Below the pieces are notes generated by a model that saw nothing but the letters and a program-made list of their open reading frames with translations, had not been told where the DNA came from and searched no databases. A stretch of 60,785 nt of DNA, from the IMG/VR virus record IMGVR_UViG_3300046725_000023, positions 1 through 60,785 of that record; one strand, given 5' to 3'. The first letter of the stretch is position 1. Every line of letters starts with the position of its first letter. This document shows, piece by piece, positions 22,614-57,944 of the stretch. Made by a program: the position numbers and the translations under genes. The stretch comes from a virus. Taxonomy: Duplodnaviria > Caudoviricetes.

Positions 22614-22650
22614 AACAGGCCCGCCGGTGAACATCCCCGGCGGGCCTGTT
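22614..22650 (-). terminator. Hairpin terminator after major tail gene
   Basis: AACAGGCCCGCCGG...CCGGCGGGCCTGTT, abutting palindromic site 22650-22665. Confidence 0.7.
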
Positions 22651-22662
22651 GACGGTGCATTG

Positions 22663-23355
22663 TCAGGAGCTGAGCGACTGGCAACCACACGACGCCACCG
22701 GCGGCGCAAGCTGGGTCCAGATCGGGAGGTGGTGCGTGTCGGTCGGGATCGCCGTGAACAACGGCGACGGGGCCGTGGTGAGGTCGCGAACGACGTCGTA
22801 CGGTCCCACTCCCCACGGCGTGCCCTTGCGGGTACGGCCGACCACCGTGAAGGTGATCAGATCGTTGGTGATCGTGATGTCCTCGGACAGCGCGCCCTCG
22901 ACCACCCAGGGCAGGAGGTTGTACCCGAAGAACGGGTACACGTCACCGGGGAGGCACTCCTCCTCGGCGTTGCCCATCCACGCCTCCAGAGCGAAGTTCG
23001 CCGTGGCGAAGTTCGTCTCCGTGACGGGGAACCCGATCACGTTGCCCTGGTCGTCCTCGTACGCGTCCAGGCCCGTGATGATGGTGAACAGCTCCGGGTC
23101 CACCTCCTGGAACTGCATCGAGACGTCGTACCAGTTCAGGCTCGGCGCGCTGCGCTGGTTGACGATCGCGCGGCCCTTGGCGTTGCGCTGGAGGAACCGC
23201 TCGCCCTCCTCGGCGTTCGGCGTGAGCACGACCTGGACGTATCCGTCCGAGACCGCGTACGCGCAGTCCCCGTACTCCGGGTTACCGCACTCGTCCAGGC
23301 GAGTGACACGGATGGTCTCCCCCTGGAGGGGCTTGGCACAGAGCAGATTGGTCAT
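22663..23355 (-). CDS. Major tail tube protein
   Basis: IRVTRLDECG...NFALEAW...YNLLPW...TPWGVGPYDV. Confidence 0.75.
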   Translation of the reverse strand: MTNLLCAKPLQGETIRVTRLDECGNPEYGDCAYAVSDGYVQVVLTPNAEEGERFLQRNAKGRAIVNQRSAPSLNWYDVSMQFQEVDPELFTIITGLDAYEDDQGNVIGFPVTETNFATANFALEAWMGNAEEECLPGDVYPFFGYNLLPWVVEGALSEDITITNDLITFTVVGRTRKGTPWGVGPYDVVRDLTTAPSPLFTAIPTDTHHLPIWTQLAPPVASCGCQSLSS

Positions 23356-24164
23356 CAGGACACCTCCAGCGGGTTGAACTCCGCCTCACCGGCGAAGCAC
23401 TCGAAAGCGACCGAGTAGGCGCGCTCGGCTACCAGCACGACCTCGTTCGTCTCACGATCGAACGAGTTGTAGACCTGGATCTCCGGAGCGCGCCACACGG
23501 CGGTCTGCCCGGTCACGAAGACCGAGCCCGCCGGGTAGGCGCCGAATGCCCAGACCGAGCCCATCGGCGTGACCTTGCGGTTGCCGTCGGGCAGGATCAG
23601 CCCGGCCTCCGCCGCGAACGCCGCGACCTCGACCGGTGCGTGGATGTACGCCGTGCCGCCGTAGCCCTGGACCGTGTAGGCGTACCGCTCCAGTGCGCCG
23701 AGCACGTCCGTGATCAGCGACGGGTCCTGCTCGCCGACTACGGGCTCCGCCTCACCGGACAGCGAGAGGATGCCCAGCGAGTTGCCCTCCAGGTCCAGCC
23801 CGGAGTAGAACGCGCGCTCCACGGCCGCCTGCTCGGCCATCTCCAGGCGACGCCGGACCTTGGCCTGGTACTCGGCGGTCGTGTAGCCCACGGCGCCACA
23901 GAGCAGCGTGGAGAGCGCGACGAACACGCCGGTCTCCACCTCGGCGTTGTCGCCGTCCAGGGGCTTTTCCGGCGCGGCCACCTCCCCGCCGTAGCACGTC
24001 ACGCCGTAGGCGTATGCCGTGCCGCAGGAGTTCGGGACGAACCGAACGCCACCACCTTCCCCATGATTGGGGAGGTCGATGGGTCCGCTGGCCGCGTCGA
24101 ACAGGCCGTACCGACGGCGGAGCGGTTCAGGCGCCGGGACTACCGGAGCCGGGATGATTGCCAC
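23355..24164 (-). CDS. Capsid-associated structural protein
   Basis: Directly after MCP; RYGLFDAA...NEVVLVAERAY. Confidence 0.6.
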   Translation of the reverse strand: MAIIPAPVVPAPEPLRRRYGLFDAASGPIDLPNHGEGGGVRFVPNSCGTAYAYGVTCYGGEVAAPEKPLDGDNAEVETGVFVALSTLLCGAVGYTTAEYQAKVRRRLEMAEQAAVERAFYSGLDLEGNSLGILSLSGEAEPVVGEQDPSLITDVLGALERYAYTVQGYGGTAYIHAPVEVAAFAAEAGLILPDGNRKVTPMGSVWAFGAYPAGSVFVTGQTAVWRAPEIQVYNSFDRETNEVVLVAERAYSVAFECFAGEAEFNPLEVS

Positions 24165-24233
24165 TCGTGATCACCACCTCAGTGAGTCGAGCCGGGCGGC
24201 CGGGCCGGAGCCCGGCCGCCAGCGAGGTGATCA

Positions 24234-25961
24234 TTACGGGCAGCAGCCGACGACGCCCGAGGTGTCGATGGTCGCCGAGTAGAGCCGGGAGTCGGCGCAC
24301 ATCTGGATGACGTTGAACCCGTCCTCCGCGAACAGCGCGGTGTACTGGTTCTGGGTGAGCAGCGCGTTGTCGTAGATGGTGTCCAGGCTGACCACGTCGC
24401 GGACCGGCTTCACCCAGGTACCCGCCGGGTAGACGAGGAACTGGACGGTGGCGGGCCAGGTGGTGATCGAGGCCGATGCACCGGGGCCGCCGGAGAGGCC
24501 GCTGTACGCGTCCTGCCAGTCGTAGACGAAACGCGGGACGGCCTTGCGGGTCGTGAACGCCGCGAGGATCTCGGCGTCCGAGACGTTGATCGCCGCGACA
24601 CCCTGGCGGCGAGCGAGGGCGGCCCGGATGGGCGCGAGCACCCAGGCGGGGAGCACGACCTCGATCGTGGCCGAGCGGGCCATCCGGTGCCGGTACTTCA
24701 TGTCCTCGATCGCCAGCTCCACGGCCGAGAGCAGCGCGCTGGCCGCGTCGTCGCCGGACGCGTCCGCCGCGATGGTGACCGGCGCGCCGGACTGCGCGAC
24801 GATCCGCGCGATGACCGACTCGTTCACCTTGTGGGCGAGCGCGACCATGGCGCCCCGCGAGAAGCGGGACACGGCCTCCGGGTAGCCCCGGCGCTGGAGC
24901 AGCGAGCCCGTGATGCAGACGTACGCGACGTCCAGGCGGACCTCCACGAAGTCCGGGCACGGGATCTCGACACAGACCTTGTCGGTGCCGTTGATGACGT
25001 CGTACTCCGTGAGGATGACGTCACCCTCATCGCCGATCGAGTCGTAGATCGTGCTGAAGTCCGGGCCGCCGTTCTCGGGGACGAAGAAACCGCCCCGGGT
25101 CGCCTGGACCTCGGCGATGTCCAGCATGCCGTCCAGGGTCTCCAGCTCACACAGGTCGTAGATCGTCTCGGACGGCGCACACCATCCGGCGGCGGCCGTG
25201 AGCGACTTGCCCGCCTTCACCTGAAGTTCCATCGACGCGATGAGCGAACCGCCCGGGAGGCGCTTCTCGCTGGTCGCGTACTCCAGGACCGACAGGGCCG
25301 ACTTCTCGTCGCGGATCCGCAGGTTGTCCGGGAACTCGCGGACGAACTGGACGTTGCCGTGACGCTGCATGGTCCGGCCGCCCACGGCGGTCCGGTTGCG
25401 GCCACGCACCCGCTGGACCATGTCGGTCAGGGCGCGCTTCGCGCCGCCGGTCGAGTAGCCGGAGAGGCGCCGCTCGATCAGTTCGCCGACAGCGGCGAAC
25501 GAGGCGAGCTGGCCGCCGGTGCCCGGCGCGTCCGCGCTGGCGACCATCGAGGCGTAGCGCTCGGGCTCGACCACCGGGGGAGTGTCCAGGGTGCTGGCGG
25601 GCGGAGCCGCCGGGGTGCCGGTGCCAGCGGTCACGCCGGGCGCCGGGTCGGTGCCGGGAGTGCCGGGCGCGGCCGGGGTCTCGACCGGCGGCACAACGGC
25701 CGGGGTCTCGACCGGCGCGGCAGGCGCGAGACCAGCGGCCAGCTCGGCGCGGGCAGCGGTCGCGGCGGCGGCCTGCTCGGTGCGCCGGGTGTCGTCGGCC
25801 GTGACGGCCGCGAACAGGTCGCGGGTGGCCAGCAGCAGCTCGGGGCTCGCGGCATCGTCGGCGGCGGTCGCGCTGGCGAACTCGCGCACCTTGGCCAGGA
25901 ACTCGGCGAACTCCGCCGCGCTGAGCGCGGTCAGATCGGCCGGGACCTCGAACGGGAACAT
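24234..25961 (-). CDS. Major capsid protein with N-terminal scaffold-like extension
   Basis: LTAAAGWCAPSETIYD, CVEIPCPDFVEVRLD, NQYTALFAEDG. Confidence 0.85.
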   Translation of the reverse strand: MFPFEVPADLTALSAAEFAEFLAKVREFASATAADDAASPELLLATRDLFAAVTADDTRRTEQAAAATAARAELAAGLAPAAPVETPAVVPPVETPAAPGTPGTDPAPGVTAGTGTPAAPPASTLDTPPVVEPERYASMVASADAPGTGGQLASFAAVGELIERRLSGYSTGGAKRALTDMVQRVRGRNRTAVGGRTMQRHGNVQFVREFPDNLRIRDEKSALSVLEYATSEKRLPGGSLIASMELQVKAGKSLTAAAGWCAPSETIYDLCELETLDGMLDIAEVQATRGGFFVPENGGPDFSTIYDSIGDEGDVILTEYDVINGTDKVCVEIPCPDFVEVRLDVAYVCITGSLLQRRGYPEAVSRFSRGAMVALAHKVNESVIARIVAQSGAPVTIAADASGDDAASALLSAVELAIEDMKYRHRMARSATIEVVLPAWVLAPIRAALARRQGVAAINVSDAEILAAFTTRKAVPRFVYDWQDAYSGLSGGPGASASITTWPATVQFLVYPAGTWVKPVRDVVSLDTIYDNALLTQNQYTALFAEDGFNVIQMCADSRLYSATIDTSGVVGCCP

Positions 25962-26088
25962 GTCGTTTCCTCACGGTCGTCGGAGTGTTACGCGACGCCC
26001 GGCCGGGTCGAATCCTGACACCGGTGTGTCAAGCGCGATCGTATCACCGGGGCGGACAACTGGCGCCGAATGTCCGTCGTCCCCGGTG

Positions 26089-26117
26089 TTGACACCTCAC
26101 AGTCAGGACTGTAACGT
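26089..26117 (+). promoter_or_regulatory. Promoter with palindromic site
   Basis: TTGACA-17bp-TAACGT. Confidence 0.8.
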
Positions 26118-26158
26118 ATCTCTTGTCAGCACGGAGCGAGCGAGAGGAACCACCAGCC

Positions 26159-26890
26159 ATGAGCACCCAGACGATCGAGCGGAACTACCGGAAGAACCCC
26201 CACAAGGCCACGTTCCTCCAGACCTTCCACTCTGGCATCTCCTCCACCGGCCGCAACTACCGCGCCGAGCTGGCCACCCAGGACGACAACGCAGCCGAGT
26301 ACAAGCTGGCCGCCGAGGAGTCCGGCGACCTGCTGAACCTGGTCGAGGAGCGCGACACGGTGGACTACCGGTCCCCCGCCCAGGCGGCCCTGATGACCAA
26401 GCTGCTCGCGGACATCGAGGCCCTGGACGCGGCGACCGGCGCGGCGGCCCGCAAGTGGACCAACGACGCCACGGCCGCCGGTCACTGGACCGCCGGTCGC
26501 AACGGCAACGCCAGCGCCTGGATCACCCGGATGATCGAGAAGGTCCGCGAGATGCGCGCGGCGGCCCCGGTCGCCGCTCCCCCCGCCCCGGCGGTCGAGG
26601 TGGCGGACGGCCGCTACGCGGTCGAGCACGAGGGCACCCTGAAGTTCTACCGGGTCAAGAACGGCCACCGCGCCGGGTTCGTGTTCCTGGACGTCCAGGC
26701 GAGCGATGACTGGTACGGCATCCGGAACCTGACCAGCATCCGCGAGATCCTGGCCCTGATCGCCATCGACCCGAACGCGGCTCAGGTCCGCTACGGCCAG
26801 AAGATCGGCCGTTGCTACCGCTGCAACCGCACGCTCACGGATCAGGTCAGCCGCGACCTGGGAATCGGGCCGGACTGCCGCACCAAGTAA
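26159..26890 (+). CDS. DUF6011-like zinc-finger protein
   Basis: RCYRCNRTLTDQVSRDLGIGPDC; GAGAGGA RBS. Confidence 0.75.
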   Translation: MSTQTIERNYRKNPHKATFLQTFHSGISSTGRNYRAELATQDDNAAEYKLAAEESGDLLNLVEERDTVDYRSPAQAALMTKLLADIEALDAATGAAARKWTNDATAAGHWTAGRNGNASAWITRMIEKVREMRAAAPVAAPPAPAVEVADGRYAVEHEGTLKFYRVKNGHRAGFVFLDVQASDDWYGIRNLTSIREILALIAIDPNAAQVRYGQKIGRCYRCNRTLTDQVSRDLGIGPDCRTK

Positions 26891-26949
26891 GAAACACCAG
26901 GTGGGGGACCTCCCGAGGAGGTCCCCCCAGACCCGTTAGGGGAGCAACA

Positions 26950-27231
26950 ATGGAAGTAATCAAGATCCGCCCGGCCCGCGTCAGCGCGGCGCTGGTCGCC
27001 ATCGGGGACATGCTGGTCGCCTCCCCGGTCGGTGCCGACGGACCGCGAGAGTCGCAATGGATCGGCGCCGTGACCGAGCACGTGATCGTGGAGGAGGTCA
27101 ACGGCGAGCCCGTCACGGCGGCTGAGTGGCGTCAATGGCGCATCGCCCGGCCGGACGGGCTCAGCGTGGAGAGCGCGCCGATCCCGGCGGACGGATGGGT
27201 CTGGGTGCACCTGCCCATGATCGAGTCGTGA
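26950..27231 (+). CDS. Hypothetical protein
   Basis: GGGGAG RBS, ATG 26950. Confidence 0.6.
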   Translation: MEVIKIRPARVSAALVAIGDMLVASPVGADGPRESQWIGAVTEHVIVEEVNGEPVTAAEWRQWRIARPDGLSVESAPIPADGWVWVHLPMIES

Positions 27232-27608
27232 CCGCGCTGGCGGTCCAGGTCGGCTCGACCATCACGAACGGGTCGAGCGCCATGCGCGTGACCGAGCGCG
27301 TGGAGCGCGAGGCCCGCTGGGGCACGGCGGGCTGGCGCGGCCTGAACATCGGCCTGGAGCGGTTCGGGGGGAACACCGGCACGACCGGGTTCGTCCCGGA
27401 CCACCTGCTCACCGGCTGGTATCACGTGCCGTTCGAGTGGCGGCCGTGCATCGGGGGAGGGGTCGAGGAGCGCTACGTGTGGAGCGCGAACTGGACGCAC
27501 CTCCAGCGCGAGGTCCGCCGGATCGAGACCGGCGTGACCACGGCGGGCGTGTGCCAGGTGGACAACGCGACCGGATGGTGCGCGACGCACGAGGAGGTGG
27601 AGGCGTGA
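27228..27608 (+). CDS. Hypothetical protein
   Basis: GTGA coupling. Confidence 0.55.
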   Translation: MTALAVQVGSTITNGSSAMRVTERVEREARWGTAGWRGLNIGLERFGGNTGTTGFVPDHLLTGWYHVPFEWRPCIGGGVEERYVWSANWTHLQREVRRIETGVTTAGVCQVDNATGWCATHEEVEA

Positions 27609-27889
27609 AGCACCTGGTGGGCCGGGGCTACGCGCTGACCGCGTGCGGGCTGACCTCGATCCTCCCCGGGGAGCTGACCGCCCGGCTGGAGAGCGTGACG
27701 CACGACGGGTGCCGCTCGGCGATCATCAATCGCGGGCAGTGCCCGGAGTGCGGCGAGCGGGGGCTGTCCTGGAACTACGCGGAGGCCGGGTTCTACCTCA
27801 CGTGCGATGCGTGCCTGGAGACCTTGCTGAACCACGTCCAGCCCGCCGTGGTGGCCGCCGCGCTGACCAAGGACGGGTGGCGGCCGTGA
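27605..27889 (+). CDS. Cys-rich zinc-ribbon hypothetical protein
   Basis: GGAGG RBS, CPEC...CDAC. Confidence 0.55.
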   Translation: MKHLVGRGYALTACGLTSILPGELTARLESVTHDGCRSAIINRGQCPECGERGLSWNYAEAGFYLTCDACLETLLNHVQPAVVAAALTKDGWRP

Positions 27890-28029
27890 GGCGCTGGTGG
27901 GCCGTCCTGGCGGTCGCGCTGGCCCTCGCGGGCGTGCTCGCGTGCGGGGGCCAGCGCCAGCAGCCGGGCGAGACCCGGTGCGTGGACGATCGCGGCCGGG
28001 CCACGCCGTGCCCGGACCGGTGGCGATGA
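27886..28029 (+). CDS. Small lipoprotein
   Basis: RRWWAVLAVALALAGVLA-C lipobox. Confidence 0.55.
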   Translation: MRRWWAVLAVALALAGVLACGGQRQQPGETRCVDDRGRATPCPDRWR

Positions 28030-28033
28030 GGAC

Positions 28034-28062
28034 TTGACACTTCACAGTCATGGCGGTAATGT
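28034..28062 (+). promoter_or_regulatory. Promoter with palindromic site
   Basis: TTGACA-17bp-TAATGT. Confidence 0.8.
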
Positions 28063-28102
28063 TCTCTTCAGTTGATAACTCCACAGAGGGGAACCACCAG
28101 CC

Positions 28103-28483
28103 ATGAACTTCACTCCGTACACCGCGATCGAGATCAGCACCGGTCGCCGGGTCCAGGTCGTCGGCAAGAACTACACCGGCGAGACCCTGGTGATCGGCTA
28201 CGCCGGGGAGACCGAGACGCACAACGTCCCGGCCAGCTCGATCCAGCCGAGCAAGACGGTCGAGGCCCGGGTGACGATCTCGACCAACCCGGCCACCGCG
28301 CACATCGGCCGATACTTCATCGACGTGCGGGACACGACCGGCGGCCGTAACCGCCAGCTCACCACCCGCGTGGCGGACGCGGCCGGGGTCGCGGACTTCC
28401 TGAGCGACCTCGCCGGGGTGGCCAAGACCCAGCACGTGGACCTGGTCAAGATCGATCAGACCGGCGGCGAACTGGCGCTGTGA
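28103..28483 (+). CDS. Hypothetical protein (126 aa)
   Basis: Promoter-RBS-gene-terminator cassette. Confidence 0.75.
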   Translation: MNFTPYTAIEISTGRRVQVVGKNYTGETLVIGYAGETETHNVPASSIQPSKTVEARVTISTNPATAHIGRYFIDVRDTTGGRNRQLTTRVADAAGVADFLSDLAGVAKTQHVDLVKIDQTGGELAL

Positions 28484-28487
28484 CACA

Positions 28488-28520
28488 CGAGAGGCCCGGA
28501 CCAATGGTCCGGGCCTCTCG
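28488..28520. terminator. Terminator between convergent genes
   Basis: CGAGAGGCCCGGACCA-A-TGGTCCGGGCCTCTCG. Confidence 0.75.
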
Positions 28521-28537
28521 CTGTTGACGGTGCAATG

Positions 28538-30097
28538 TCAGGCTTTCCACCCGGCCCAGTACGCCGTGACCAGCGTGGTCAGCAGCGTGCCGATGGCGTC
28601 CGGCGCGGCAGCGGCCGTGGTCAGCCCACCGGCGGCCGTGGCGTACCAGAGCTGACCGCCCGCGTTGATCGCCGCGTTCGAGCTGTTGCACCGGCGGCTG
28701 ACCGTCGGCAGGGCGCCGCCGCTGGTGGTCACCCAGAACCGCGCCCGGTAGAACGCGCCCGGCGTGACCGCCTGAGCGACGGTCAGCGGCATGGTCCGCT
28801 CCCCGCCGGTCTGGAGGTTGGTGGACTGGTCCGCGCTCTTGGCACCGGCGCCCAGGATGTCCCCGGCGTCGTTGTGCAACGTCCAGTAGGCGTTCGTCAG
28901 CAGCGTGCCCGGCGACGTCACATGGATGTTCATCGCGCTGACCGTGGGCTGATCGGCCCGGAACCGGAAGATCAGCGGCGTACCGCCGGACGCGATGATC
29001 AGGCCCGCCTGGATATCGGCCGGGTCGCCCATCCAACCGGAGAACCCGTGATCCACGGCCGTGCTCGCCTGGAGCCACACCCAGGTCCCGGGCTCACCCG
29101 CCACCGTGCAGCGGAACCGGCCGACCCGGGTATCCACGATGTCGCCCACGGCCCAGATCCCCGTGGTCGGCGCGGTCGTGATGTCCAGGTACCCGGCTAT
29201 CCCCAGGTTGGTCGCCGTGTTCTTGGCGCCCAGGTAGGCGACGTGCTGACCGGCCCGGCCGTCGATGCGCTGCTGGCCACCGAACGCGTTCGGCCCGAAC
29301 TCGGTCACGCCCGCCAGGGTGTTGCCGTCCGCGCGCAACCGCCGGAGATCGGTCTGGGTGCCGGTGAACCCGGCTCCGGACCAGCGCGACTCGATGACGT
29401 CGCCGACCACCTCCCAGTCGATGGCGCCGCCGGTCGAGCGCCAGCGCGCGGCGCCGCCCGCCGAGCGCGCCACGGTGAACGTGGAGTCCGTGACGACCGG
29501 CGACATCTTGGGGAGGTAGTCCGTCAGCGACTCCGTCAGCGTTTCGTAGCTGACCAGGTTGTCGATGTCGGCCGCGACCAGGTAGTCCCCGGCCGGTTGC
29601 TTGCCGTCGAGCTGGACCTGAAGATCGTTGATGTCCTCGATCTCGTGCGTGTGGTCGCCGCTCGCGTGCGTGTGCCCGATGTCCGACTTCGTGGCCAGCC
29701 CGGCGTTGAGCTGCGCCAGGGTGGCGTACGTGACGCCCGGGACGATGACCGAGCTGGTGAGGATCAGCCGGTCCGCCAGGTTCACGGTCGTGTCGTCCAC
29801 GAACAACTGGACGGTGCCCCGGATGGGGGTCAGCCCGTTCACGGCCGCCGTGACCGAGTACGCCCAGTTCTCCGGCGTCCAGCCGTCCACCGTGACCGGG
29901 GGCAGGCGGAACGTTGCCGACCCGGTGGCCGGATCGAGCCGGACCACCTGGTCGATGACCGGGACGATCGAGTCGTCATCCGGCCCCTGGAGAGGTTGCG
30001 GGCTGGTGATGCGCACCGACCCGAACGCCGCGCCGTCCGGCGGGGTGTCGAACTGGCACACCAAGGTCACCAGCGGCAGCCCCGCCGGGAACGGCAT
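28538..30097 (-). CDS. Fibre-like virion protein in head module
   Basis: GHTHASGDHTHEIEDINDLQVQLDGKQ phage fibre repeat; beta-rich C-terminal domain. Confidence 0.65.
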   Translation of the reverse strand: MPFPAGLPLVTLVCQFDTPPDGAAFGSVRITSPQPLQGPDDDSIVPVIDQVVRLDPATGSATFRLPPVTVDGWTPENWAYSVTAAVNGLTPIRGTVQLFVDDTTVNLADRLILTSSVIVPGVTYATLAQLNAGLATKSDIGHTHASGDHTHEIEDINDLQVQLDGKQPAGDYLVAADIDNLVSYETLTESLTDYLPKMSPVVTDSTFTVARSAGGAARWRSTGGAIDWEVVGDVIESRWSGAGFTGTQTDLRRLRADGNTLAGVTEFGPNAFGGQQRIDGRAGQHVAYLGAKNTATNLGIAGYLDITTAPTTGIWAVGDIVDTRVGRFRCTVAGEPGTWVWLQASTAVDHGFSGWMGDPADIQAGLIIASGGTPLIFRFRADQPTVSAMNIHVTSPGTLLTNAYWTLHNDAGDILGAGAKSADQSTNLQTGGERTMPLTVAQAVTPGAFYRARFWVTTSGGALPTVSRRCNSSNAAINAGGQLWYATAAGGLTTAAAAPDAIGTLLTTLVTAYWAGWKA

Positions 30098-30100
30098 GGC

Positions 30101-30250
30101 TCAGCCGCCCTTGACGACGGTCGAGCCCGGGTGCCGGGCCGCGAACGACTTGGCGGCGGCCTCGCTGCTCTTGACGACCTTCAGCCCGCCGGGCAACCGC
30201 ACGGTGTAGCTCTCCCGCGCGGCCCGGCCCTTGCCACATGAGCACGCCAT
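30101..30250 (-). CDS. Small MACSC-type phage protein (49 aa)
   Basis: MACSCGKGRAARESYTVRLPGG...; GGGAGG RBS. Confidence 0.6.
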   Translation of the reverse strand: MACSCGKGRAARESYTVRLPGGLKVVKSSEAAAKSFAARHPGSTVVKGG

Positions 30251-30253
30251 CGG

Positions 30254-31654: not shown

Positions 31655-31700
31655 GGCTTCCTCCTCCGTGCTCAGGCTACCGGCTCGGCCGGGTTGGTGG

Positions 31701-31730
31701 TTGACACTTCACAGTCAAGCCTGGTACGTT
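31701..31730 (+). promoter_or_regulatory. Promoter with palindromic site, leaderless into ATG 31737
   Basis: TTGACA-18bp-TACGTT. Confidence 0.75.
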
Positions 31731-31736
31731 GTTGAC

Positions 31737-31976
31737 ATGACGAACAAGAGCGACTTCCGGTACCTCTGCCCCAGCTCCCAGGCCGAGATCATCGCCGCAG
31801 ACCACGCGGAGGCCCTGATGATGGACACGGCGCGCGGCATGCGGATCGTTGCGGTCACGGTCACCGGATACGCGATCACCCGCGACATGCTGGACACCGA
31901 GATCCGCTCGACCCGCGCGCCGCGCCCGGCCACCTCTCACGGGTACTTCCCCCGCAGCGTGACCGAGCTGGTCTGA
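31737..31976 (+). CDS. Hypothetical protein (79 aa)
   Basis: MTNKSDFRY...; leaderless start. Confidence 0.65.
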   Translation: MTNKSDFRYLCPSSQAEIIAADHAEALMMDTARGMRIVAVTVTGYAITRDMLDTEIRSTRAPRPATSHGYFPRSVTELV

Positions 31977-31979
31977 CCG

Positions 31980-32222
31980 ATGATCACCTACGACTTCCGG
32001 ATCGTGCTCCACTCGACGGGGTACGGTCCGGACGAACAGCCCCAGGAAGTGGTCTACGGGGTTCGCAAGCACACCGGGACCGCGACCACCGCAATGGCCG
32101 CCGCGCGTCGGACGCGTACCCGGGCGGACGCAGCGCGTATCGAACGGGTGGCGGTCCACGGCGGTCCGACCTTCCAGTCCCACGAGATCCAGGCATTCAC
32201 GATCGGCCTCGGCCGCCCCTGA
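31980..32222 (+). CDS. Hypothetical protein (80 aa)
   Basis: Fills the gap after 31737 gene. Confidence 0.55.
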   Translation: MITYDFRIVLHSTGYGPDEQPQEVVYGVRKHTGTATTAMAAARRTRTRADAARIERVAVHGGPTFQSHEIQAFTIGLGRP

Positions 32223-51000: not shown

Positions 51001-52435
51001 CCTCCGGCACCCAGTTCATCGGCTCGGCGGCCGACCCGGTGTAGACGGTCAGCAGGCTGTCCGCGAGCAGGTTCTTGCCCACGCCCATCTGGAGCCCGTC
51101 CACCACGGCAAGCGGCACCTTGGGCACCATCCCCCGGATGGCCGGGGTGAGGATCAGCGCCATCATGTTGGCCCGGTCCACGTCGGAGTCGAACGGGAAG
51201 TCCCCGAGCCACTCGTCCAGGATCAGCTTGCGGGCGGCCGAGATCTCGTCCGGGCTCGGGTCCTCGGGGACCTTGATCCCCTCGAACACCGGGTCCGGCA
51301 TGAGCATGGTCTGGGTGCTCTCGTCGTACCCGGGCTCGGTCACCACCGTGCCGTCGGGCCGGACGTACGGGGCGTGGCTGATCCGGGCCAGGGGAGCGAA
51401 GTGGTCGGCGCGGCTGAGCACGGCGGCCATCGTGTTCGGGTCCGGCCAGGCGTAGCCGTAGGTGGTGCCGTTCGCGCCCTCGTTCTCGTTCACCGTGATG
51501 GCGGTTTCCTGAATCACGTCGTTGAACGTGCCCTTGTCGATCGGCTTCATCGTGGCGGTCTTGCGGCGGCTGAGCACTCCGCCGTGGCAGAACAGCTCGA
51601 CCGCGTTCCACTTCTCCAGCAGCGCGGTGGTCAGATCGTTGATGACCGAGAACCGGTCACGGTTGACGATGACGGTCGCCCGTCCGTCGTCCGCCTCCGG
51701 CGCGCCCTTGGCCTTGCCCTTCCCCTTGGGTGCCTTGTCGGCGGGCTTGGGCTTGGCGTCGTTCACGATGCGGGCCATGTAGGTGGCCCGCCGGTCGGCG
51801 CCCTTGGAGCCCAGCACGTCGTCCAGGCCGGACTTCCCCGTAGCCACCAGGCGACCGAACCGGACCTTGGTGGCGCCCTCGGACACCAGCACGGCGGCCA
51901 GCTCCGTCCCGGCCTCGTACACCTGGGGGTTGTCGGACGCGTCGGCGTCCAGGATCACCACGACCTCGCGGCCGTCCACAACCTCCAGATCGGGGATGGG
52001 CATCCCGTCCTTCTGCCACGACCGGCAGCCCGCGATGCCGTAGACGGACCAGCCGTCCGGCGCGTAGCTGGCACCGGCGAGGCATTGCTTGGTCCCCTCG
52101 ATGATCAGGACCTTGGTCGAGCCGGGCACCACGCGGACGCCCCAGAGAACCGGCGTCATCTCGCGGGCGAACACGTACTTGCGATCCCGGCCCCGGCTGT
52201 CCTGGGTCGGGTCGTCCGGGCGCACCTGGTACTCGATCCGGCCGTCCGGGCTGGTCCAGGGGAACAGGATGGCCGGGTGGTTCGCCCAGTTGCCCCAGAC
52301 GCCCTCGGTCGGGTTGTCCTCGCGGGTGAGCAGCGAGCGGACACCCAGCGATAGAGCCAGCTCGATATTCACGGCCTGAGCCGCCAGGTACTCGGCGTGC
52401 TCGGGGGTCAGTCGGGCTGTGTTATCGTCGGCCAC
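48062..52435 (-). CDS. Fused TOPRIM primase (DUF3854-like), P-loop helicase-like domain, 3'-5' exonuclease and family A DNA polymerase
   Basis: IIEGTKQ...ILDADA...GLDD; GLQMGVGKNLL and FVFDEA; TFDLET, GHNIMAFDLP, YMRQDV; QATGRWS, DLSQVDMR, KAKAIGHGWNYG, QVHDE. Confidence 0.9.
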   Translation of the reverse strand: MADDNTARLTPEHAEYLAAQAVNIELALSLGVRSLLTREDNPTEGVWGNWANHPAILFPWTSPDGRIEYQVRPDDPTQDSRGRDRKYVFAREMTPVLWGVRVVPGSTKVLIIEGTKQCLAGASYAPDGWSVYGIAGCRSWQKDGMPIPDLEVVDGREVVVILDADASDNPQVYEAGTELAAVLVSEGATKVRFGRLVATGKSGLDDVLGSKGADRRATYMARIVNDAKPKPADKAPKGKGKAKGAPEADDGRATVIVNRDRFSVINDLTTALLEKWNAVELFCHGGVLSRRKTATMKPIDKGTFNDVIQETAITVNENEGANGTTYGYAWPDPNTMAAVLSRADHFAPLARISHAPYVRPDGTVVTEPGYDESTQTMLMPDPVFEGIKVPEDPSPDEISAARKLILDEWLGDFPFDSDVDRANMMALILTPAIRGMVPKVPLAVVDGLQMGVGKNLLADSLLTVYTGSAAEPMNWVPEADELRKQITAAFRTGAEFFVFDEAHTVEGAPLAQALTAATWQDRILGVSTMANFPNVITWISLGNQVQVRGDLTRRVYRIALRPKYANPQDRPSSSFRHPGQSGLELPEWTRKNRAEIMTAILTLVRAWFAKGQPRPKRGVSFGSFETWEKITGGILEVAGMTGFLDNLKVWRSESDFDTQYWAGHLEWLRRTFGNNPFKTADVKAKARANVAGYMAPPKLDDPEDKAYGKALGEAYSRLSGRRYGKLWVERQGFAHGHVSVWRVFEEGADGAAPQPPEPPPVTPEPEPESPAWDGKLGCSLHGGVADASGWIACHPNVCGHEPQPDPAPENEHGEARGADESDTDGEGHEEVRPPVGRQEKIQHPTGDDGGDGMAWSDNAPSSELLTFDLETGDAADLYRVPGAEYVHIGATAADDQPVQDFTGPDTRTVAENVTSRFWGAATVTGHNIMAFDLPALVRAGTITMPEIHRMAAEGKLFDALLAARFVDPPMARDKGVDQQRRYDLGTLGPAYGLGDKLTDVSGLLAKRYGGWDAIPYDTSDPDPERASDAADFIGYMRQDVELSRRLHAALLERLGGTVPDYLVREHRVAAIAAQIRHNGFKVDQELLTERVEGVRKVKADAMARLAENYGIPTTDAKGKAYASPLATKAGKAALEEALRREGATSFWRTEKSGEFQVGSDHMLHLGREYHHLPGVVAIAKDVYRIVGARSVYQTALDHLCPDGRVHPKIGFEQATGRWSVTSPGLTVFGKRGGRHVERDVFLPDEGEVLMSADLSQVDMRAVAGLSQDQAYIEMLKHDDPHAEIAIALFGDVKHREKAKAIGHGWNYGRGLAAISQMEEIEPRLVRQFDTSMRERFPRLVEWQTEVRAIAESGDLLDNGFGRLMRADPRRAHTQGPALMGQGAARDIMMEGLLRLPAEILPMLRAQVHDEIVFSAPVERAEEIGRAVVEALTFDWKGVPIMADVSKTGTSWGMCYTK

Positions 52436-52515
52436 AGTTTGGTCTTCCTCTCCAGGTCGATCTACTCCGGGCCGGTTCCCCTCGCGGGGTTCCGGCCCGG
52501 CTCCGTTCTCAGACC

Positions 52516-53262
52516 TTACGCCTGGGTCTCGGACTGGACGGGGGGAGTGGGGGGACCGTACGGGAACGGAGCGCCCACGATGTCACGGACCTTGCGGACC
52601 GAGCTGGCCAGCCGCTCCGGGTTGGTCTCGCCGCCGTCCAGGATGATCCGGATGTCGTTGCCCATCACCACGCCCGCCACCCGGCCGATGGTGCGGCTCA
52701 ACTTCTGGATCTCGTGCTGAGCCTCGTGGAGCGCGGTCTCGGCGGACTCCGTCCGGTGGCCCGCCACGGCGACCTGTGCCAGCGCGGTGGCCTCGTTCTT
52801 CTTGCTGATCTCCAGCAGCCGGTCCCGATCGCGGCGCTGGCTGACCAATGCGGCCAGGTCGTCGGTCGCCTGGTCCAGGGCCTTGTCCCGCTGAGCGACG
52901 AGGGCGCGCGACTCCTCCAGCTCGGTCCGCAGCTTGGCCGCCACCTTCTCGGCGCTCTCGGCCCAGGTCTGGTTCTTGTCGGCGCGCTGCTGCTCGGTCT
53001 TGCGGTCCACGTCGTACAGGTGGACCTGTCGCTCCAGGGTGGCGCGTGCGGCCTCGCGCTGGTCGCGCTCGATAGTCCGGCGAACCAGTTCGCTCTCCAG
53101 CTCGGCGATCCGGCGCTGGAGGGGCTTAGCCACCAGCTCGGCCTCCCCGGCCTGTGCGTCGCCCACCTCGGCGGCCGTGTAGAGCCGCTCTGACATTGCA
53201 TCGTCAAAGGTGACCGTCACGGTCACGCGGTCCGCGTGGACCTCCGCCAACGTCCTCACCAT
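52516..53262 (-). CDS. Coiled-coil protein
   Basis: GGGGAGG RBS, heptad pattern; promoter TTGCCA-17-TAAGGT at 53330-53358. Confidence 0.7.
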   Translation of the reverse strand: MVRTLAEVHADRVTVTVTFDDAMSERLYTAAEVGDAQAGEAELVAKPLQRRIAELESELVRRTIERDQREAARATLERQVHLYDVDRKTEQQRADKNQTWAESAEKVAAKLRTELEESRALVAQRDKALDQATDDLAALVSQRRDRDRLLEISKKNEATALAQVAVAGHRTESAETALHEAQHEIQKLSRTIGRVAGVVMGNDIRIILDGGETNPERLASSVRKVRDIVGAPFPYGPPTPPVQSETQA

Positions 53263-53360
53263 GTCTGGACCTCCCCGTCCTCTGGTGTGTGAGGCGGGGG
53301 AACTGACCGTCCCCCCGCCTGGGAAGTGAACCTTACAGCCGTGCCGGTCTGGTGGCAAGC

Positions 53361-55034
53361 CTAGACCGTGATGCCCATCCGCTTCGCCGCCCGGCGGCCC
53401 TGGATCCGGGTCAGCAGGTCGGCCGCCTGGCCCTTGGTCTTCACCCGGGGGAGCGCGGCGGCGGGCAGCCCCTCGGCCATGAGCTTGTTCCGCTGTGCCG
53501 GAGAGGCGGGCTCATTGCGCCACCGGGCCTTGCGCTCGGCCAGCTTCTGGAACGCCTTAGCCCGGTCCTCCCCGATGCCCATCGCCCAGTCGGACGGCAG
53601 GGCCTCGTGGAGCACGGTCAGCCGGTTGTCCGCGTAGCTCGCCAGCCGCCAGGTGTCCTCCAGGGTCGGAGCCATGATGACGATCTCCTGACCGGCGCCG
53701 AGCACCCAGGCCGGGCCTACGGGCAGCCAGGAGAGCCGGGAAGACCCGAACACGTCCACGGTGCCCTTGCGGCCAGCCTGGCAGTTGTCGTGCCGTGTGC
53801 CGCCGTCCCGGGTCACGCCCACGGGGAGGTAACGATGGCACAGCGCGCACCGGTGGGTCACCACCTCGCACGGGACCTCGCACGTCGGGCACGCCTGGCG
53901 CTCGGTCTCGCCCTCTTTCTTCTTGCGCTGGTCGTCCAGGTCCAGCCCGAGGTCCACCACGCCGATCAGTTCGTGGCGCTGGCTGGCGCCCACGATGTCG
54001 ATGACCAGCAGGTTGGTCTTCCCCGGGGACAGCCGCGTACCCCGGCCGACCATCTGGACGTAGAGCCCGTGGAACTTGGTCGGGCGGCCGATGAGCACGC
54101 ACTCGATCGACGGCTCATCGAACCCTTCCGTGAGCACGGCGCAGTTCGTCACCCACTGGGTGGTGCCGTGCTTCAGCCGGGTCAGGATGGCCTTGCGCTC
54201 CTCGGTCGGCGTGTTGCCGTCCACGTGCTCGGCCCGGATGCCGCGAGCCACCAGCGCGGCGGCGAGCAGCTCCGAAGTCTTGATCGTGGGGAGGAACGCC
54301 AGCCCCTTACGGTCGGCCGCGTGCTCGATGACCGCGTCCGCCATCTGCTCGATGGCGCCGGAGTCCTCCAGCTCCCGGCCCAGGTCGCCGTCCGAGTAGT
54401 CGCCGCCGGTCTTGCGGACCTTGGTCATGTCCATCCGGGTCTCGACCACCACGGCGGGCAGGATCGGGACCAGGAACCCCCGGAAGATCGCCTCCCGGAT
54501 GGACATGAAGTCCACGACCTTCTGCCAGACGCCCAGGGTCTTGCCGTTGTCGCGCTCCGGCGTGGCCGTGAACCCGACGGCCAGGGGACCGTACGGGTTG
54601 AACGCGCCCAGCGCGGTCAGTACCTTGGTCCAGCTCGGGCTCGGTGCGTGGTGCGCCTCGTCAGCGATGATCGTGGCCAGCGGGCGGCGCCGGAGCGACT
54701 CCAGAAGCTGAGCCATCCGGCCGTCCCGCTGGATCGTCGGCACGGACGCCACGATGATGTCGGCGTCCAGATCGTTGTGCTCGGCCTTGACCAGCCCGGT
54801 CCGCAGCTCGGGCGCCTGCCAGGCCAGCTTCTCGCGGGCCTGGGTCGCCAGCTCCTCCCGGTGGGTCAGAACGATGGACCGGCCCCGGTCGGCGCGCCGG
54901 TGCACGGCCGCCGCGAACGTCACGGTCTTGCCGGTGCCGGTCGGGTGGACCACGAGCGGGCGCCGGACGCCCTCGCGCTCGGCCTGGTCCACCGCGTCCA
55001 GGGTCCGCTCCTGGTAGTCGCGCAGCTCCAACAT
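53361..55034 (-). CDS. SF2 DEAH-box DNA helicase
   Basis: LRDYQ, PTGTGKT, DEAHH, TATP, VLTEGFD, QMVGRGTR, Cys cluster. Confidence 0.9.
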   Translation of the reverse strand: MLELRDYQERTLDAVDQAEREGVRRPLVVHPTGTGKTVTFAAAVHRRADRGRSIVLTHREELATQAREKLAWQAPELRTGLVKAEHNDLDADIIVASVPTIQRDGRMAQLLESLRRRPLATIIADEAHHAPSPSWTKVLTALGAFNPYGPLAVGFTATPERDNGKTLGVWQKVVDFMSIREAIFRGFLVPILPAVVVETRMDMTKVRKTGGDYSDGDLGRELEDSGAIEQMADAVIEHAADRKGLAFLPTIKTSELLAAALVARGIRAEHVDGNTPTEERKAILTRLKHGTTQWVTNCAVLTEGFDEPSIECVLIGRPTKFHGLYVQMVGRGTRLSPGKTNLLVIDIVGASQRHELIGVVDLGLDLDDQRKKKEGETERQACPTCEVPCEVVTHRCALCHRYLPVGVTRDGGTRHDNCQAGRKGTVDVFGSSRLSWLPVGPAWVLGAGQEIVIMAPTLEDTWRLASYADNRLTVLHEALPSDWAMGIGEDRAKAFQKLAERKARWRNEPASPAQRNKLMAEGLPAAALPRVKTKGQAADLLTRIQGRRAAKRMGITV

Positions 55035-55420
55035 CAGTGCCCCCGCTGGACGTTCGCGCTGAACCGCTTGTACGGGCGGCCCCTCATTGCGCCGTGCTCG
55101 ATGATCGTCTCCCCGTCGAACCAGACCTGGAGCCGGTCCCCGATCTGGGGAGCGCCGCCGGACAGCGCGTGCCGCAGCGAGGAGGCGAACGCCTTGATGC
55201 GGACCCGGCCGGTCCCGCCGGTCCAGAGGTCCACGAACGGGACCGGCCCAACCAGACCGGCGGTCTCGCCCATCCGCAGGACCACGCCGGAGATCGTGGC
55301 GCCCGGCTCGGACGGGAACCAGGTCACGGCCGGGTCGCCCTCGGTCAGCGCGCGGACGGCGCACATGAGGCACGTGGCCTCGTGGTCCGTCGCGTTCGTG
55401 TCGTGCTCGGTTGTCGTCAT
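55034..55420 (-). CDS. OB-fold ssDNA-binding-like protein, paralogue 2
   Basis: WFPSEPGATISGVV...PQIGDRLQVWFDGE...GRPYKRF; leaderless promoter TTGACA-17-TAAGGT at 55428-55456. Confidence 0.6.
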   Translation of the reverse strand: MTTTEHDTNATDHEATCLMCAVRALTEGDPAVTWFPSEPGATISGVVLRMGETAGLVGPVPFVDLWTGGTGRVRIKAFASSLRHALSGGAPQIGDRLQVWFDGETIIEHGAMRGRPYKRFSANVQRGH

Positions 55421-55490
55421 GGCAGTTACCTTACCGTCCCGCCTGTGAAGTGTCAAAGAGTGGTGCCGGTCAGTTCGTGACAGTGCACTG

Positions 55491-55793
55491 TCAGGGGGTC
55501 GGCACCTCGGGGAGGTCGGCCGGATAGACCGCGTCCCACGAACCGGCGACACGGACCCACTCGACCACGCGGCCGTGCTTCTCCAGCCAGCGCTCGACGG
55601 CGGGCCACCCGGCGGCCGTGGGCACCTGGCCCGAGCCGGTCAGGTACCAGAGTCCGCCGGTCTTCAGCGCGGCGTAGGTGAACACCTTGGGCGGCGCCAT
55701 GCCGCGCGTGTCCTGTGCGTCCTCCTGGCGGTCGTACCGGATGCCGAGCACCAGCACGGTGCCGTTCGGGAACTTGCGGGTCAGCTTGAACAT
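55491..55793 (-). CDS. Hypothetical protein
   Basis: GGAGAGG RBS; FTYAALKTGGLWYLTG. Confidence 0.7.
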   Translation of the reverse strand: MFKLTRKFPNGTVLVLGIRYDRQEDAQDTRGMAPPKVFTYAALKTGGLWYLTGSGQVPTAAGWPAVERWLEKHGRVVEWVRVAGSWDAVYPADLPEVPTP

Positions 55794-55876
55794 GAGGGCC
55801 TCTCCAGGGGATGAACGGGAACGGGCCGCCCGGTGTGAACCACGCCGGACGGCCCGAGAGGTGATGCGAGCCTGGG

Positions 55877-56368
55877 TCAGCTCTTGTGGCGGACCACGAT
55901 CCCGAAGTGCTTGTACGGGCGGCCCTGGAACTTGCCGGTCTTCAGGATCTTCTCGCCCCAGTACTTGACGGCCATCAGGTCGCCCACCTGGGGGTTCTGC
56001 TCCTGGAGTTCCCGCTTCAGCACGGAGCCGTAGCCGATCACGCGGTACTTGATCGTCTTACCCGAGTTCTCCGGGTCCTTGCACTCCAGCGTGACGGTCG
56101 GGCACATCGGGTCCTCGCCGTCCTTGGCGAAGTCCGAGCGGGTCTGGCTGATCTTGACGACCACCCCGGCGATGCCCTCGCCCTTCTCCTTGGGCACCCA
56201 GCCCTCGGAGTCGTCCTCCTCGACCGTGTCCAGCAGGTCGTCCACCCCGGCGAACAGGTCCTCCTCGGTGGAGGTGGCCTTCACACCGTCGGTGCCGAGC
56301 TGATCGAACAGGCCATCCGCCTCGTCCAGGGGAGCAGTCGAAACGGTCTTGCTGGCGGTACCGGCCAC
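55877..56368 (-). CDS. OB-fold ssDNA-binding-like protein, paralogue 1
   Basis: GAGGAGG RBS; acidic N-terminus; WVPKEKGEGIAGVV...PQVGDLMAVKYWGE...GRPYKHF. Confidence 0.65.
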   Translation of the reverse strand: MAGTASKTVSTAPLDEADGLFDQLGTDGVKATSTEEDLFAGVDDLLDTVEEDDSEGWVPKEKGEGIAGVVVKISQTRSDFAKDGEDPMCPTVTLECKDPENSGKTIKYRVIGYGSVLKRELQEQNPQVGDLMAVKYWGEKILKTGKFQGRPYKHFGIVVRHKS

Positions 56369-56585
56369 GAGGGCCTCCTCTGTTTGTGCGCTGCGCTGTG
56401 TGCTGTCAGTTGTTGGTGCGACCCGGCCGGGCTTGGGTCTGCGTCCCGTGGAGACCGGCCCGGCCGGGCCGAGCAGATTCTGGCGGGCTGCTCCCCCTGT
56501 CGTGCATCGGCTCTCTTAACCCCAGCCGCATAGGGCGTCCGCATTGAGTTGATCAGACCGGTCTTGTGCGAACCTCGGACCGCTC

Positions 56586-56654
56586 GCGCTACGCCGGGAC
56601 TCGAACCCGGACATCCCCCGTGCACGGGGTGCTCTGCCGTTGAGCTACGTAACG
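56586..56654 (-). tRNA. tRNA-like RNA with non-canonical anticodon arm (identity undetermined)
   Basis: Acceptor CGTTACG/CGTAGCG, TA-GCTC-AACGGCA-GAGC D arm, CCGGG-TTCGAGT-CCCGG T arm, anticodon arm CCCCG-TGCA-CGGGG; no CCA. Confidence 0.75.
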
Positions 56655-56720
56655 CCGGGCCAGCCGCGAAACAGGCCCGGGGTTGCTCGGCCTAGGGGGT
56701 CCGTCGGCCTTGCGGGGACT

Positions 56721-56749
56721 ACGTTACAGGCATCGCTACCTGGTCGCAA
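56721..56749 (-). promoter_or_regulatory. Promoter for tRNA-like/SSB region
   Basis: TTGCGA-17bp-TAACGT. Confidence 0.65.
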
Positions 56750-56765
56750 CCTTGACACATCACGG

Positions 56766-57944
56766 TCAAGAGCTGGGGTTCTTCGCCTTCAGGTGCTTGG
56801 GAACCGTGATCGTCATCCGCCGGTAGGACGACCGTTCCGTGACCGCCTCCGCCACCTCGGGGTAGTCGCGCTTCAGCGCCTCCACGCTGATCCGGGTGGA
56901 GCTGACCGCCGGGTAGCTGACCACCTTGCTGTCGCCCAAGTAGGCCGCTGCCGCGTCGCCGGTCCACATGCGGAACATGTTCTTCAGTTCGTCCAGGTCG
57001 GCCTCCGCCTTCTTGCTGGCGGCGAGGGCCTTCTGGTAGTCCTTCAGCCACTCCTCGGCATCCGAGGGGAGGTCGGTAACGGGCCTCACGACCACCGGGC
57101 TGATCTGCTTCAGCAGTTCCTCGGTCTTGGGGTGCCGGAAGTCGTGCATGGGGATCTCGTCCCCCAGGATGTTGGTCACCCAGAACCGCTCGGCTTCGTC
57201 GGCCAGCTCCCGGAACCACTCCGGATCGAAGTGGATCTCCACCGTGAAGAACTCCCGCTCGCGGCCCATCACGAGGCACCCGAGGTAGGCGCGGTCCAGG
57301 CCGATGATGCCCATCTGCCACTGGCACTGAGCCTGGTAGTTCAGCGGCGCCGAGCCGGTGCCGAGCCCGCCCGGCCGGATCGTGCCGGACTGCCACTCGG
57401 ACCCGTCCCCGGCGGTCTTGCACTCGATGAGCGCCTCCGCCTTCCAGCTCCGGGCCTTCGTGGCGAACCGGTCCGGCGTCACCCGGAGGAACGGTTTCTC
57501 CGGGTTGGCCCAGAGACCTCCCCCGAACCGCGACACCATGCCGATCTCGTCCGCGATCTTCTCGGCCACGACGTCCTCCAGCCGGTGCCCCCACTCGATG
57601 GGCGCGCCGGTCAGCTCGGCGTCCGGCTCGGTCGCGGTCTTCTTGCGGTAGATCGAAAACGCCGTGTCGTACTCGGAGATCCCGACGAGGGCGGCCACCT
57701 CGGACCCGCCGATGCCGTCCAGCCGGGCGGCCAGCCACGCCTCACGACCGGCGCACTCGGGGAGGATCAGCCGGGCCGGGCTGTCGCGGACCTGTGCGAA
57801 CCGGTGCACCGGGTGCTGGCAACCCAGCCGCCCGCCGGACCGCGCCAGATAGTTGTCCACCTGGCGAGCCTGGAGGGCGGCGCGGCCAGCCCGCTCGCGC
57901 GCCCGGATCTCGGTAGGGGTGTACGCCACGGACACGTCGCTCAC
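56766..57944 (-). CDS. YqaJ-like (lambda exonuclease family) recombination exonuclease
   Basis: WLAARLDGIGGSE, WGHRLE, TPDR...IECKT, YQAQCQWQM. Confidence 0.9.
   Translation of the reverse strand: MSDVSVAYTPTEIRARERAGRAALQARQVDNYLARSGGRLGCQHPVHRFAQVRDSPARLILPECAGREAWLAARLDGIGGSEVAALVGISEYDTAFSIYRKKTATEPDAELTGAPIEWGHRLEDVVAEKIADEIGMVSRFGGGLWANPEKPFLRVTPDRFATKARSWKAEALIECKTAGDGSEWQSGTIRPGGLGTGSAPLNYQAQCQWQMGIIGLDRAYLGCLVMGREREFFTVEIHFDPEWFRELADEAERFWVTNILGDEIPMHDFRHPKTEELLKQISPVVVRPVTDLPSDAEEWLKDYQKALAASKKAEADLDELKNMFRMWTGDAAAAYLGDSKVVSYPAVSSTRISVEALKRDYPEVAEAVTERSSYRRMTITVPKHLKAKNPSS

Follow-up and report, generated by a model that had tools for sequence, protein, structure and literature searches.

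Gene ends on the TGA of a repeated TGAC-N8-GTCA palindrome in a phiAsp2-like phage genome as a plausible by-product of site placement

The window analysed here is the entire IMG/VR record IMGVR_UViG_3300046725_000023, a complete phage genome of 60,785 bp (about 70% G+C) in which the palindrome TGAC-N8-GTCA recurs in many copies and in which seven minus-strand genes have the TGA of such a copy as their stop codon. The original prediction had singled out these seven gene ends from the sequence and proposed for them a role in transcription termination. All seven coordinates proved exact, and in each case the minus-strand TGA terminates a coding open reading frame (ORF). Uniform placement of the window's 20 intergenic sites over the eligible non-coding starts would put 0.29 of them on a stop codon, whereas seven are found there (P = 9e-9). 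We describe these sites and their relatives in related phages, and we lean, with reserve, towards reading the stop overlap as a by-product of where the sites are placed and not as a termination device.

Four of the seven sites, all on the minus strand, stand directly before a strong hairpin. The major tail protein gene (22663..23355; phrog_792) takes its stop from the TGA (22665..22663) of TGACAATGCACCGTCA (22650..22665), and a GC hairpin on the same strand (22615..22649; minimum free energy, MFE, about -30 to -32 kcal/mol) begins at the first base after this palindrome, recurs at this junction in relatives and has no T-tail by the rule given below; the head-tail adaptor gene follows, starting at 22573. 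TGACATTGCACCGTCA (28525..28540) ends the gene of a 519-aa protein with a phage tail repeat (28538..30097), which converges with the plus-strand gene 28103..28483, and the hairpin lies between the two gene ends (28487..28521; MFE -36), the order for the plus-strand gene being stop, hairpin, palindrome. TGACAATGCACTGTCA (37774..37789) ends the gene 37787..38431 (214 aa), with a minus-strand hairpin 1 nt past it (37740..37772; MFE -31.5) and, beyond the hairpin, a degenerate promoter-class site, TTGAACTTCACAGGCA-N6-GTACGT (37706..37734, minus strand), upstream of the gene 37423..37656. TGACAGTGCACCGTCA (42391..42406) ends a gene for a basic 70-aa protein (42404..42616) that has no relatives in the 17 genomes compared, and the minus-strand hairpin (42360..42390; MFE about -31) again begins at the first base after the palindrome; the Actinoplanes phage phiAsp2 has a homologous site and hairpin after its gene pas63.

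The original prediction placed a hairpin within a few bases of three sites, at 22650, 28525 and 42391; these three stand, and by folding energy 37774 joins them as a fourth. The four hairpins are G+C-rich, have MFE values of -31 to -36 kcal/mol and begin 0–3 nt past the site. None is followed by a T-rich tract under the scanner's rule of 5 T in 8, by which no terminator was called, and the tails at the four gene ends read TTGTGTCC, CGTGTGTC, TCGGGTTG and CGTGTGCC. A first, strict hairpin filter missed stems with bulges, and an MFE threshold was used in its place. The four sites fill the 13 bases from stop codon to hairpin and carry no -10 box.

The other three sites, also on the minus strand, are tied to promoters. 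At 42665..42693 lies a promoter-class site, TTGACACTTCACCGTCA-tggctg-TAATGT (TTGACA-17-TAATGT), in which the TGA within the -35 box is the stop of the gene 42690..42812; the palindrome at 42677 forms the -35 box and spacer of this predicted promoter, which would drive the gene 42404..42616. The gene that ends here is a 40-aa CxxC..CxCC ORF (42690..42812, minus strand) with high third-position G+C, whose GTG start overlaps the preceding stop (GTGA); it is easily missed in annotation and has one homologue, in a relative labelled G001. A 93-aa ORF considered as the gene ending at 42690 was replaced by this 40-aa frame. TGACAGTGCACTGTCA (55478..55493), the sole perfect palindrome, ends the gene 55491..55793 (100 aa), and the promoter TTGACACTTCACAGGCG-ggacgg-TAAGGT (55428..55456, minus strand), kept at this junction in relatives, follows 22 nt after it, with the ATG of the gene 55034..55420 placed 7 nt past the -10 box. 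The last site, TGACCGTGATGTGTCA (56753..56768), ends the gene of a RecE/YqaJ-like exonuclease (56766..57944); a promoter-like TTGCGA-17-TAACGT (56721..56749, minus strand) lies 3 nt past it, a gap that is identical in G001, G003 and G015, and the first gene after this promoter is a minus-strand tRNA-Cys (GCA) gene (56585..56655) within the 384-bp gap that follows the RecE-like gene. The idea of a role apart from promoter-class sites thus survives for the four hairpin-linked sites, but the seven do not form one non-promoter class: by function they comprise one promoter, two upstream operators of a promoter and four sites between stop and hairpin at operon ends.

Seen across the window, the seven belong to a larger set. 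TGAC-N8-GTCA occurs 30 times against 1.05 expected (100 shuffles, the largest giving 4), with 20 intergenic and 10 intragenic copies; the outer TGAC/GTCA is palindromic in every site, and the intragenic sites occur in both orientations. All 30 sites were oriented and aligned to separate kinds. Thirteen form a promoter class that matches TGACACTTCACAGTCA-N5-GTAANGT with at most three mismatches (0 expected) and that, with the preceding T, reads TTGACA, a 17-bp spacer and TAAnGT; where a downstream gene was called, most lie about 50–60 bp upstream of its start. TAnnnT is the actinobacterial form of the -10 box, and the site at 42665..42693 and the 12 other members of the class combine a TTGACA-like -35 box, a spacer within 16–18 bp and a TAnnnT -10 box, as a housekeeping sigma factor would require. 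A scanner built on the E. coli consensus (at least 4 of 6 matches to TATAAT) called 0 promoter-like sites in 22500..60785, TAATGT matching at 3 of 6 positions. We take its miss of both promoters and hairpins as a limit of its E. coli criteria, yet it weighs against calling either of them canonical. The second kind of site has a TGCA core (TGACAnTGCACnGTCA), lacks a -10 box and approaches a perfect palindrome at 55478. There are 11 of these in the window: one is also a promoter (1654), five are intragenic and five overlap a stop (22650, 28525, 37774, 42391 and 55478).

Several further copies and neighbours of these two kinds deserve mention. The divergent promoters at 1601 and 1654 enclose a single perfect 18-bp palindrome, CTGTGAAGTACTTCACAG (1632-1649), whose arms each equal the conserved CTTCACAG spacer of the promoter class and which may be bound by a second regulator. 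Inside a 462-aa SprT-like ORF (160..1548) lies a promoter-class site that has a -10 box (992-1019) and is kept in eight relatives with 77–97% flank identity; the counterpart of this region in phiAsp2 consists of three separate genes, pas41-43. A TGCA-core palindrome is kept about 26 codons into the tape-measure gene (18593-18608; 16399-16414 in phiAsp2), the start of which was confirmed in phiAsp2 by N-terminal sequencing according to a note in the record. Finally, the genes at 1688 (plus strand) and 55420 (minus strand) probably have leaderless mRNAs, because their ATG comes only 6–7 nt after the -10 box.

To place the sites in a family, 46 related viral loci were found with the major tail protein as query, 16 whole relatives were fetched and 17 genomes were compared, the window included; gene calls came from a codon-bias caller made for this analysis, except in phiAsp2, for which the depositors' annotation was used. 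The nearest named relative is phiAsp2 (79% identity across 35% of a 20-kb query), relative to which the window is inverted and circularly permuted, which explains why most window genes lie on the minus strand. Pfam and PHROGs assign to the window a siphovirus structural set (portal, MuF-like protein, major head, major tail, tape measure and tail proteins), a methyltransferase and glycosyltransferase trio, a terminase and a holin, together with an early module of a 1,457-aa primase-polymerase, a helicase, the RecE/YqaJ-like exonuclease and a RuvC-like resolvase. Among 74 + 30 window proteins, Pfam and PHROGs recognised neither an integrase nor a repressor family, and a scan of genome contigs gave no integrated relative, its single weak match being an unrelated Flavobacterium record; the phage looks lytic, without sign of lysogeny. 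None of 22 RNA runs was listed as containing the phage.

The palindrome is the top-scoring one in all 13 motif-rich genomes, with 16–36 copies in 12 of them, the window included, and eight in G006. In four others (G008, G012, G013 and G014) it occurs at chance level, with one to three copies, and no alternative palindrome was found in its place. These four have the window's structural genes and a different early/replication module, without the DNA polymerase/RecE early module, and serve as natural controls for the motif. The intragenic sites at 9181, 11226 and 32603 are kept at homologous positions in 9/15, 10/15 and 11/16 aligned relatives, respectively, while G012–G014 have G+C-rich sequence there instead. 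Because intragenic copies are conserved in motif-rich genomes and replaced in motif-poor ones, the sites are selected DNA elements whose upkeep depends on something in the early module.

What that something might be was sought by phylogenetic profile, which showed the motif to co-occur with the early module only as a whole. The profile leaves six candidate binders, encoded at 160..1548, 2761..3240, 3346..3585, 55034..55420, 55491..55793 and 55877..56368. No DNA-binding family was recognised in 30 small proteins with Pfam (E up to 5), the ESM Atlas gave no usable match for 160..1548 (residues 1–200) or 55491..55793, and no homologue of a stoperator repressor was detected in the window. The sole Pfam DNA binder, an HTH_17 protein (1999..2244), was rejected as binder of the palindrome, since G008, which has three sites, encodes a homologue that is 79% identical.

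The overlap with stop codons is a feature of the family. In 14 genomes with 329 sites, 56 sites fall exactly on a called stop (offset 0), offsets 1–30 combined hold 16 and 125 sites are intragenic; the window contributes six of the 56, the 40-aa gene having been added later. The depositors' annotation of phiAsp2 agrees, as that genome has 36 sites and seven coding sequences (pas2, pas18, pas41, pas60, pas63, pas67 and pas74) take the TGA of a site as their stop. Sorted by eye, the 56 sites comprise 24 with an immediate hairpin, eight that are a -35 box, ten with a promoter just downstream, six before a conserved element, seven that overlap the start of the next gene and one other. Among the ten with a downstream promoter, seven share a 3-nt gap, at two non-homologous junctions. 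Since promoter, terminator and gene-junction architectures all show it, the overlap belongs to the motif itself at any gene end that it adjoins, and not to one functional class. The conserved element downstream of six offset-0 sites reads GCCGAGATG..CCGTAGGATGG (GCCGAGATGnCCCC..CCGTAGGATGG). In the form GCCGAGATGnCCCC..CC(G/A)TAGGAT(G/A)G it lies about 35 nt after a palindrome in the window (46575-46637, minus strand), in phiAsp2 (638-700) and in G002, G004, G009, G010 and G016, upstream of portal-side and terminase-side operons, and it may represent a second promoter class without a -35 box.

A model that accommodates these data treats the seven sites as part of a genome-wide TTGAC-N8-GTCAA set common to phiAsp2-like phages with the same early/replication module. 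Judging by how symmetric, numerous and conserved they are, the palindromes would most likely be bound by one dimeric, putative regulator. At the 13 promoter-class sites of the window, the left half provides the TTGACA -35 box of a promoter of host type whose -10 box reads TAAnGT, and a bound protein would occlude this promoter; the remaining sites would be plain palindromes within genes and at gene ends, and at the four hairpin-linked ones a bound protein may insulate neighbouring transcription units. The sites would be parked at the first base of short intergenic regions, and four circumstances make the overlap a consequence of this: every copy of the motif necessarily opens with TGA; about 70% of the genes in this genome of 70% G+C use TGA as their stop; stop-derived tetramers already make up about 12% of non-coding TGAC in motif-poor relatives (43 of 347 TGAC/GTCA, 12.4%); and intergenic regions are so short that only the first base after the gene is free for a 16-bp site.

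Two routes could lead to such an arrangement. In the first, seeding, a site grows on an existing TGA stop, as may have happened at the major tail protein gene. In 41 of the 46 loci the stop of this gene comes directly after the last aligned residue (TGA in 27, TAG in 11 and TAA in 8 loci), and the motif follows at offset 0 in five loci and in the window, never at offsets 1–22. The interior of the palindrome varies between phages at this junction, the flanks and the following hairpin are homologous, and relatives without the site have a stop-to-hairpin spacer of 8–33 nt, a pattern which suggests that the site grew on an existing TGA and filled this spacer. In the second route, run-on, an ORF with a loosely constrained tail would continue to the first A/T-containing signal of the next transcription unit. 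At junctions homologous to 55478 the promoter is conserved, and the tail length and stop position of the upstream gene vary: the stop lies in the TTGA of the -35 box (G003, G011), in the spacer (phiAsp2), before a hairpin (G002, G004, G015, G007) or in the extra palindrome (window). At the RecE junction it is the TGA of the motif in the window, G003 and G015, the TAA of the -10 box TAAGGT in G001 and G004 and the TAG of TAGACA in phiAsp2 and G002.

A different idea is that the palindromes are crossover points for the gain and loss of gene cassettes with the order site (-35), -10 box, gene and TGA of the next site, in which case recombination within sites would always leave a gene ending on a site. 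Two indel cases fit it, in which different genes precede a conserved site and hairpin and each ends on the TGA of the site: the major tail protein in the window versus pas18 in phiAsp2 and G004, and the 70-aa gene 42404..42616 in the window versus pas63 in phiAsp2. The 70-aa gene without relatives moreover has a site on either side, at 42677 and 42391, with 286 bp between them, the stop-proximal half of the stop-plus-hairpin sites is TGACA in 24/25, like the -35 half of promoter sites, and the phage encodes a RecE-like exonuclease. On the other hand, the window-specific genes 28538..30097, 37787..38431, 57941..58183 and 59775..60095 lack such a pair of flanking sites, precise junctions would be expected in any case if intact stops are selected for, and 16 bp are short for homologous exchange; we consider cassette exchange very unlikely.

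In numbers, a null model of seeding and compaction speaks for the by-product reading, under which the overlap requires no termination role: it predicts 12–23% overlap, against 56 of 204 intergenic sites (27%) in the family and, with P = 0.008 to 0.16, 7 of 20 window sites. The null leaves an excess, and several observations weigh against the by-product reading. Non-promoter intergenic sites lie on a stop in 47 of 105 cases (45%; P = 7e-7 even against the 23% expectation), promoter-type sites in nine of 99; in the window, five of six intergenic TGCA-core sites overlap a stop versus two of the 14 others (Fisher P = 0.007). Of the sites that separate a stop from a hairpin, 27 stand at offset 0 and only two leave a gap (G001 2284 and G004 4781), and seven of the 56 offset-0 sites lie at convergent junctions, without a downstream gene to regulate. 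Across the family, stop-plus-hairpin sites have a more symmetric interior than promoter-class sites (2.12 vs 1.19 of 4 pairs), lack the conserved ACTTCACA spacer and show A at position 5 in 24/25, with T at the mirror position 12 in 11/25, an orientation bias that a pure by-product would not predict. The designation of the palindromes as regulator sites is itself putative, being drawn from their symmetry, number and conservation. Because related genomes are not independent, the P values are too small and all family statistics are inflated by kinship. Compaction, together with a stop-anchored half-site that cannot decay, is a sufficient but unproven explanation of the residual excess.

The stop-overlapping sites are linked to hairpins. 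The 48 nt that follow the site have an MFE at or below -28 at 27/56 offset-0 sites, versus 18/148 other intergenic and 3/125 intragenic sites. A phage protein on the stop-codon palindrome could block or slow RNA polymerase at operon ends and reinforce the U-poor hairpins, which would make the hairpin-linked sites a palindromic counterpart of mycobacteriophage stoperators. We hold this as a possible but rather unlikely account. The hairpins have no T-rich tail and help with termination would therefore be useful, conserved sites within late genes and sites at convergent junctions serve no promoter, and at 28525 the plus-strand operon reaches the hairpin first and the palindrome second, an order that could stop antisense read-through into the late gene. 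The number and spread of the sites also resemble those of stoperators, of which the accessible text of PMC3029335 gives 24 in L5 and 34 in Bxb1, mostly intergenic. Yet a gene that ends on such a site has it upstream of the hairpin, and the hairpin would be redundant because the block would act before it is transcribed. Three of the seven sites are linked to promoters, a rough scan of the window gives about 19 gene ends with a hairpin, of which only four have the motif, and, as the phage looks lytic, with no integrase, repressor family or integrated relative found, there is no prophage to silence.

A more elaborate form of the idea seems to us doubtful at best. In it, a bound dimeric early protein would make the stop-codon palindromes switchable insulators and turn the U-poor operon-end hairpins into effective barriers. 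A transcript halted before the operator would lack a stop codon, and the last gene of the blocked unit would then be silenced too, through ribosome rescue; the half-site bias (TGACA beside the stop) and the near absence of gaps would be functional and not historical.

The gene-end copies might also act in RNA, either as a small UGAC..GUCA stem beside the terminator hairpin or as the target of a protein that binds RNA at the 3' end of the message. At gene ends the motif is part of the transcript and lies 0–3 nt from the hairpin, its orientation is biased relative to the gene and a protein with a ProQ C-terminal-like domain is encoded at 43934..44362. The motif nevertheless also occupies untranscribed promoter positions and is conserved in both orientations within genes, and only its outer four pairs are constant (interior mean 2.1 of 4 pairs), so that the stem would be 4 bp long, the interior often not being self-complementary; we consider this account very unlikely. 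Readings as restriction sites, primase sites or repetitive extragenic palindromic (REP) elements were dropped: the motif is enriched and not avoided, it is associated with -35 boxes, and the hairpins next to it show no conservation from one site to another.

Repeated sites of this kind have precedents among actinophages. The conserved inverted repeats (CIRs) of the Streptomyces phage phiC31 are repressor operators with many conserved intergenic copies, in a temperate phage with a known binder. The stoperators of Cluster A mycobacteriophages, bound by L5 gp71 and Bxb1 gp69, share with the present sites the tens of copies of one short sequence, mostly in short intergenic spaces, and a version that overlaps the early promoter, other copies being proposed to stop elongating polymerase, according to the accessible text of PMC3029335 and PMC9283540. 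The L5 consensus GGTGGMTGTCAAG ends in TGTCAA like the right half of the palindrome described here, which is a resemblance only. At least 20 copies of one short site, as in a stoperator set, are present here, but an asymmetric site oriented with transcription and a temperate phage with an immunity repressor were not found. Stoperators are 13 bp long and bound by a monomer; according to the accessible text of PMC9283540 they are asymmetric and act in a single orientation. This weighs against the roadblock proposed above, since the present sites are palindromes of 16–18 bp with a partial half-site bias at gene ends only. Cluster A phages are moreover temperate, in contrast to the picture given here.

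A likeness in kind is found in the 17-bp repeats of Cluster O mycobacteriophages (TGTTCGGNNNCCGAACA). These too are palindromes that number in the dozens, with many copies between genes and about a third within genes, in phages for which the accessible text of PMC4351075 reports no lysogens and leaves the function of the repeats unknown. The phage here is likewise without sign of lysogeny, the intragenic share is 10/30 in the window and 125/329 in the family, and both groups of phages carry a methyltransferase and two glycosyltransferase genes; the likeness is one of kind and not of homology. The Cluster O repeats differ in sequence and spacing, and no link to stop codons, -35 boxes or hairpins is stated in the accessible text of PMC4351075.

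In compact genomes, gene ends can overlap the signals of the next gene, as in ATGA/GTGA junctions and stops within Shine-Dalgarno sequences (compare PMC2784483). The junctions described here resemble these in that a downstream signal supplies the stop (TTGACA, the TAA of TAAGGT, TAGACA and GTGA), and they differ in that the signal is a putative transcription-factor palindrome or a -35 box and not a ribosome-binding site. A literature search with the motif strings and phiAsp2 returned no description of the site network, although the phiAsp2 genome paper or the phiC31 CIR papers may mention it. We file the system under a known kind, the genome-wide repeated regulator sites, here putative, of actinophages. 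Read as a by-product of placement, it offers a worked example of how a regulatory motif containing TGA becomes the stop of many genes in a compact, high-G+C genome without a termination function, and it cautions against reading a motif at a gene end as a terminator device. It also outlines a putative regulatory network of about 30 sites, comprising promoter-class sites, plain palindromes and conserved intragenic copies, that travels with the early/replication module of phiAsp2-like phages, and phiAsp2, a deposited record with a named host strain, is thereby a natural model system. If the hairpin-linked sites were protein-operated barriers after all, the stoperator idea would extend to palindromic sites in an apparently non-lysogenic phage.

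Apart from the palindromes, an A/T-rich stretch at 36280-36420 (ctctatatatcg, aaagaaaaaaatt) lies between repeated ggggaccgggg/ccccggtcccctagtcc arms and separates the small early genes from the portal operon. It is probably a cos site or packaging end, which would account for the permutation relative to phiAsp2. The gene 37154..37426 matches phiAsp2 pas75, an HNH endonuclease.

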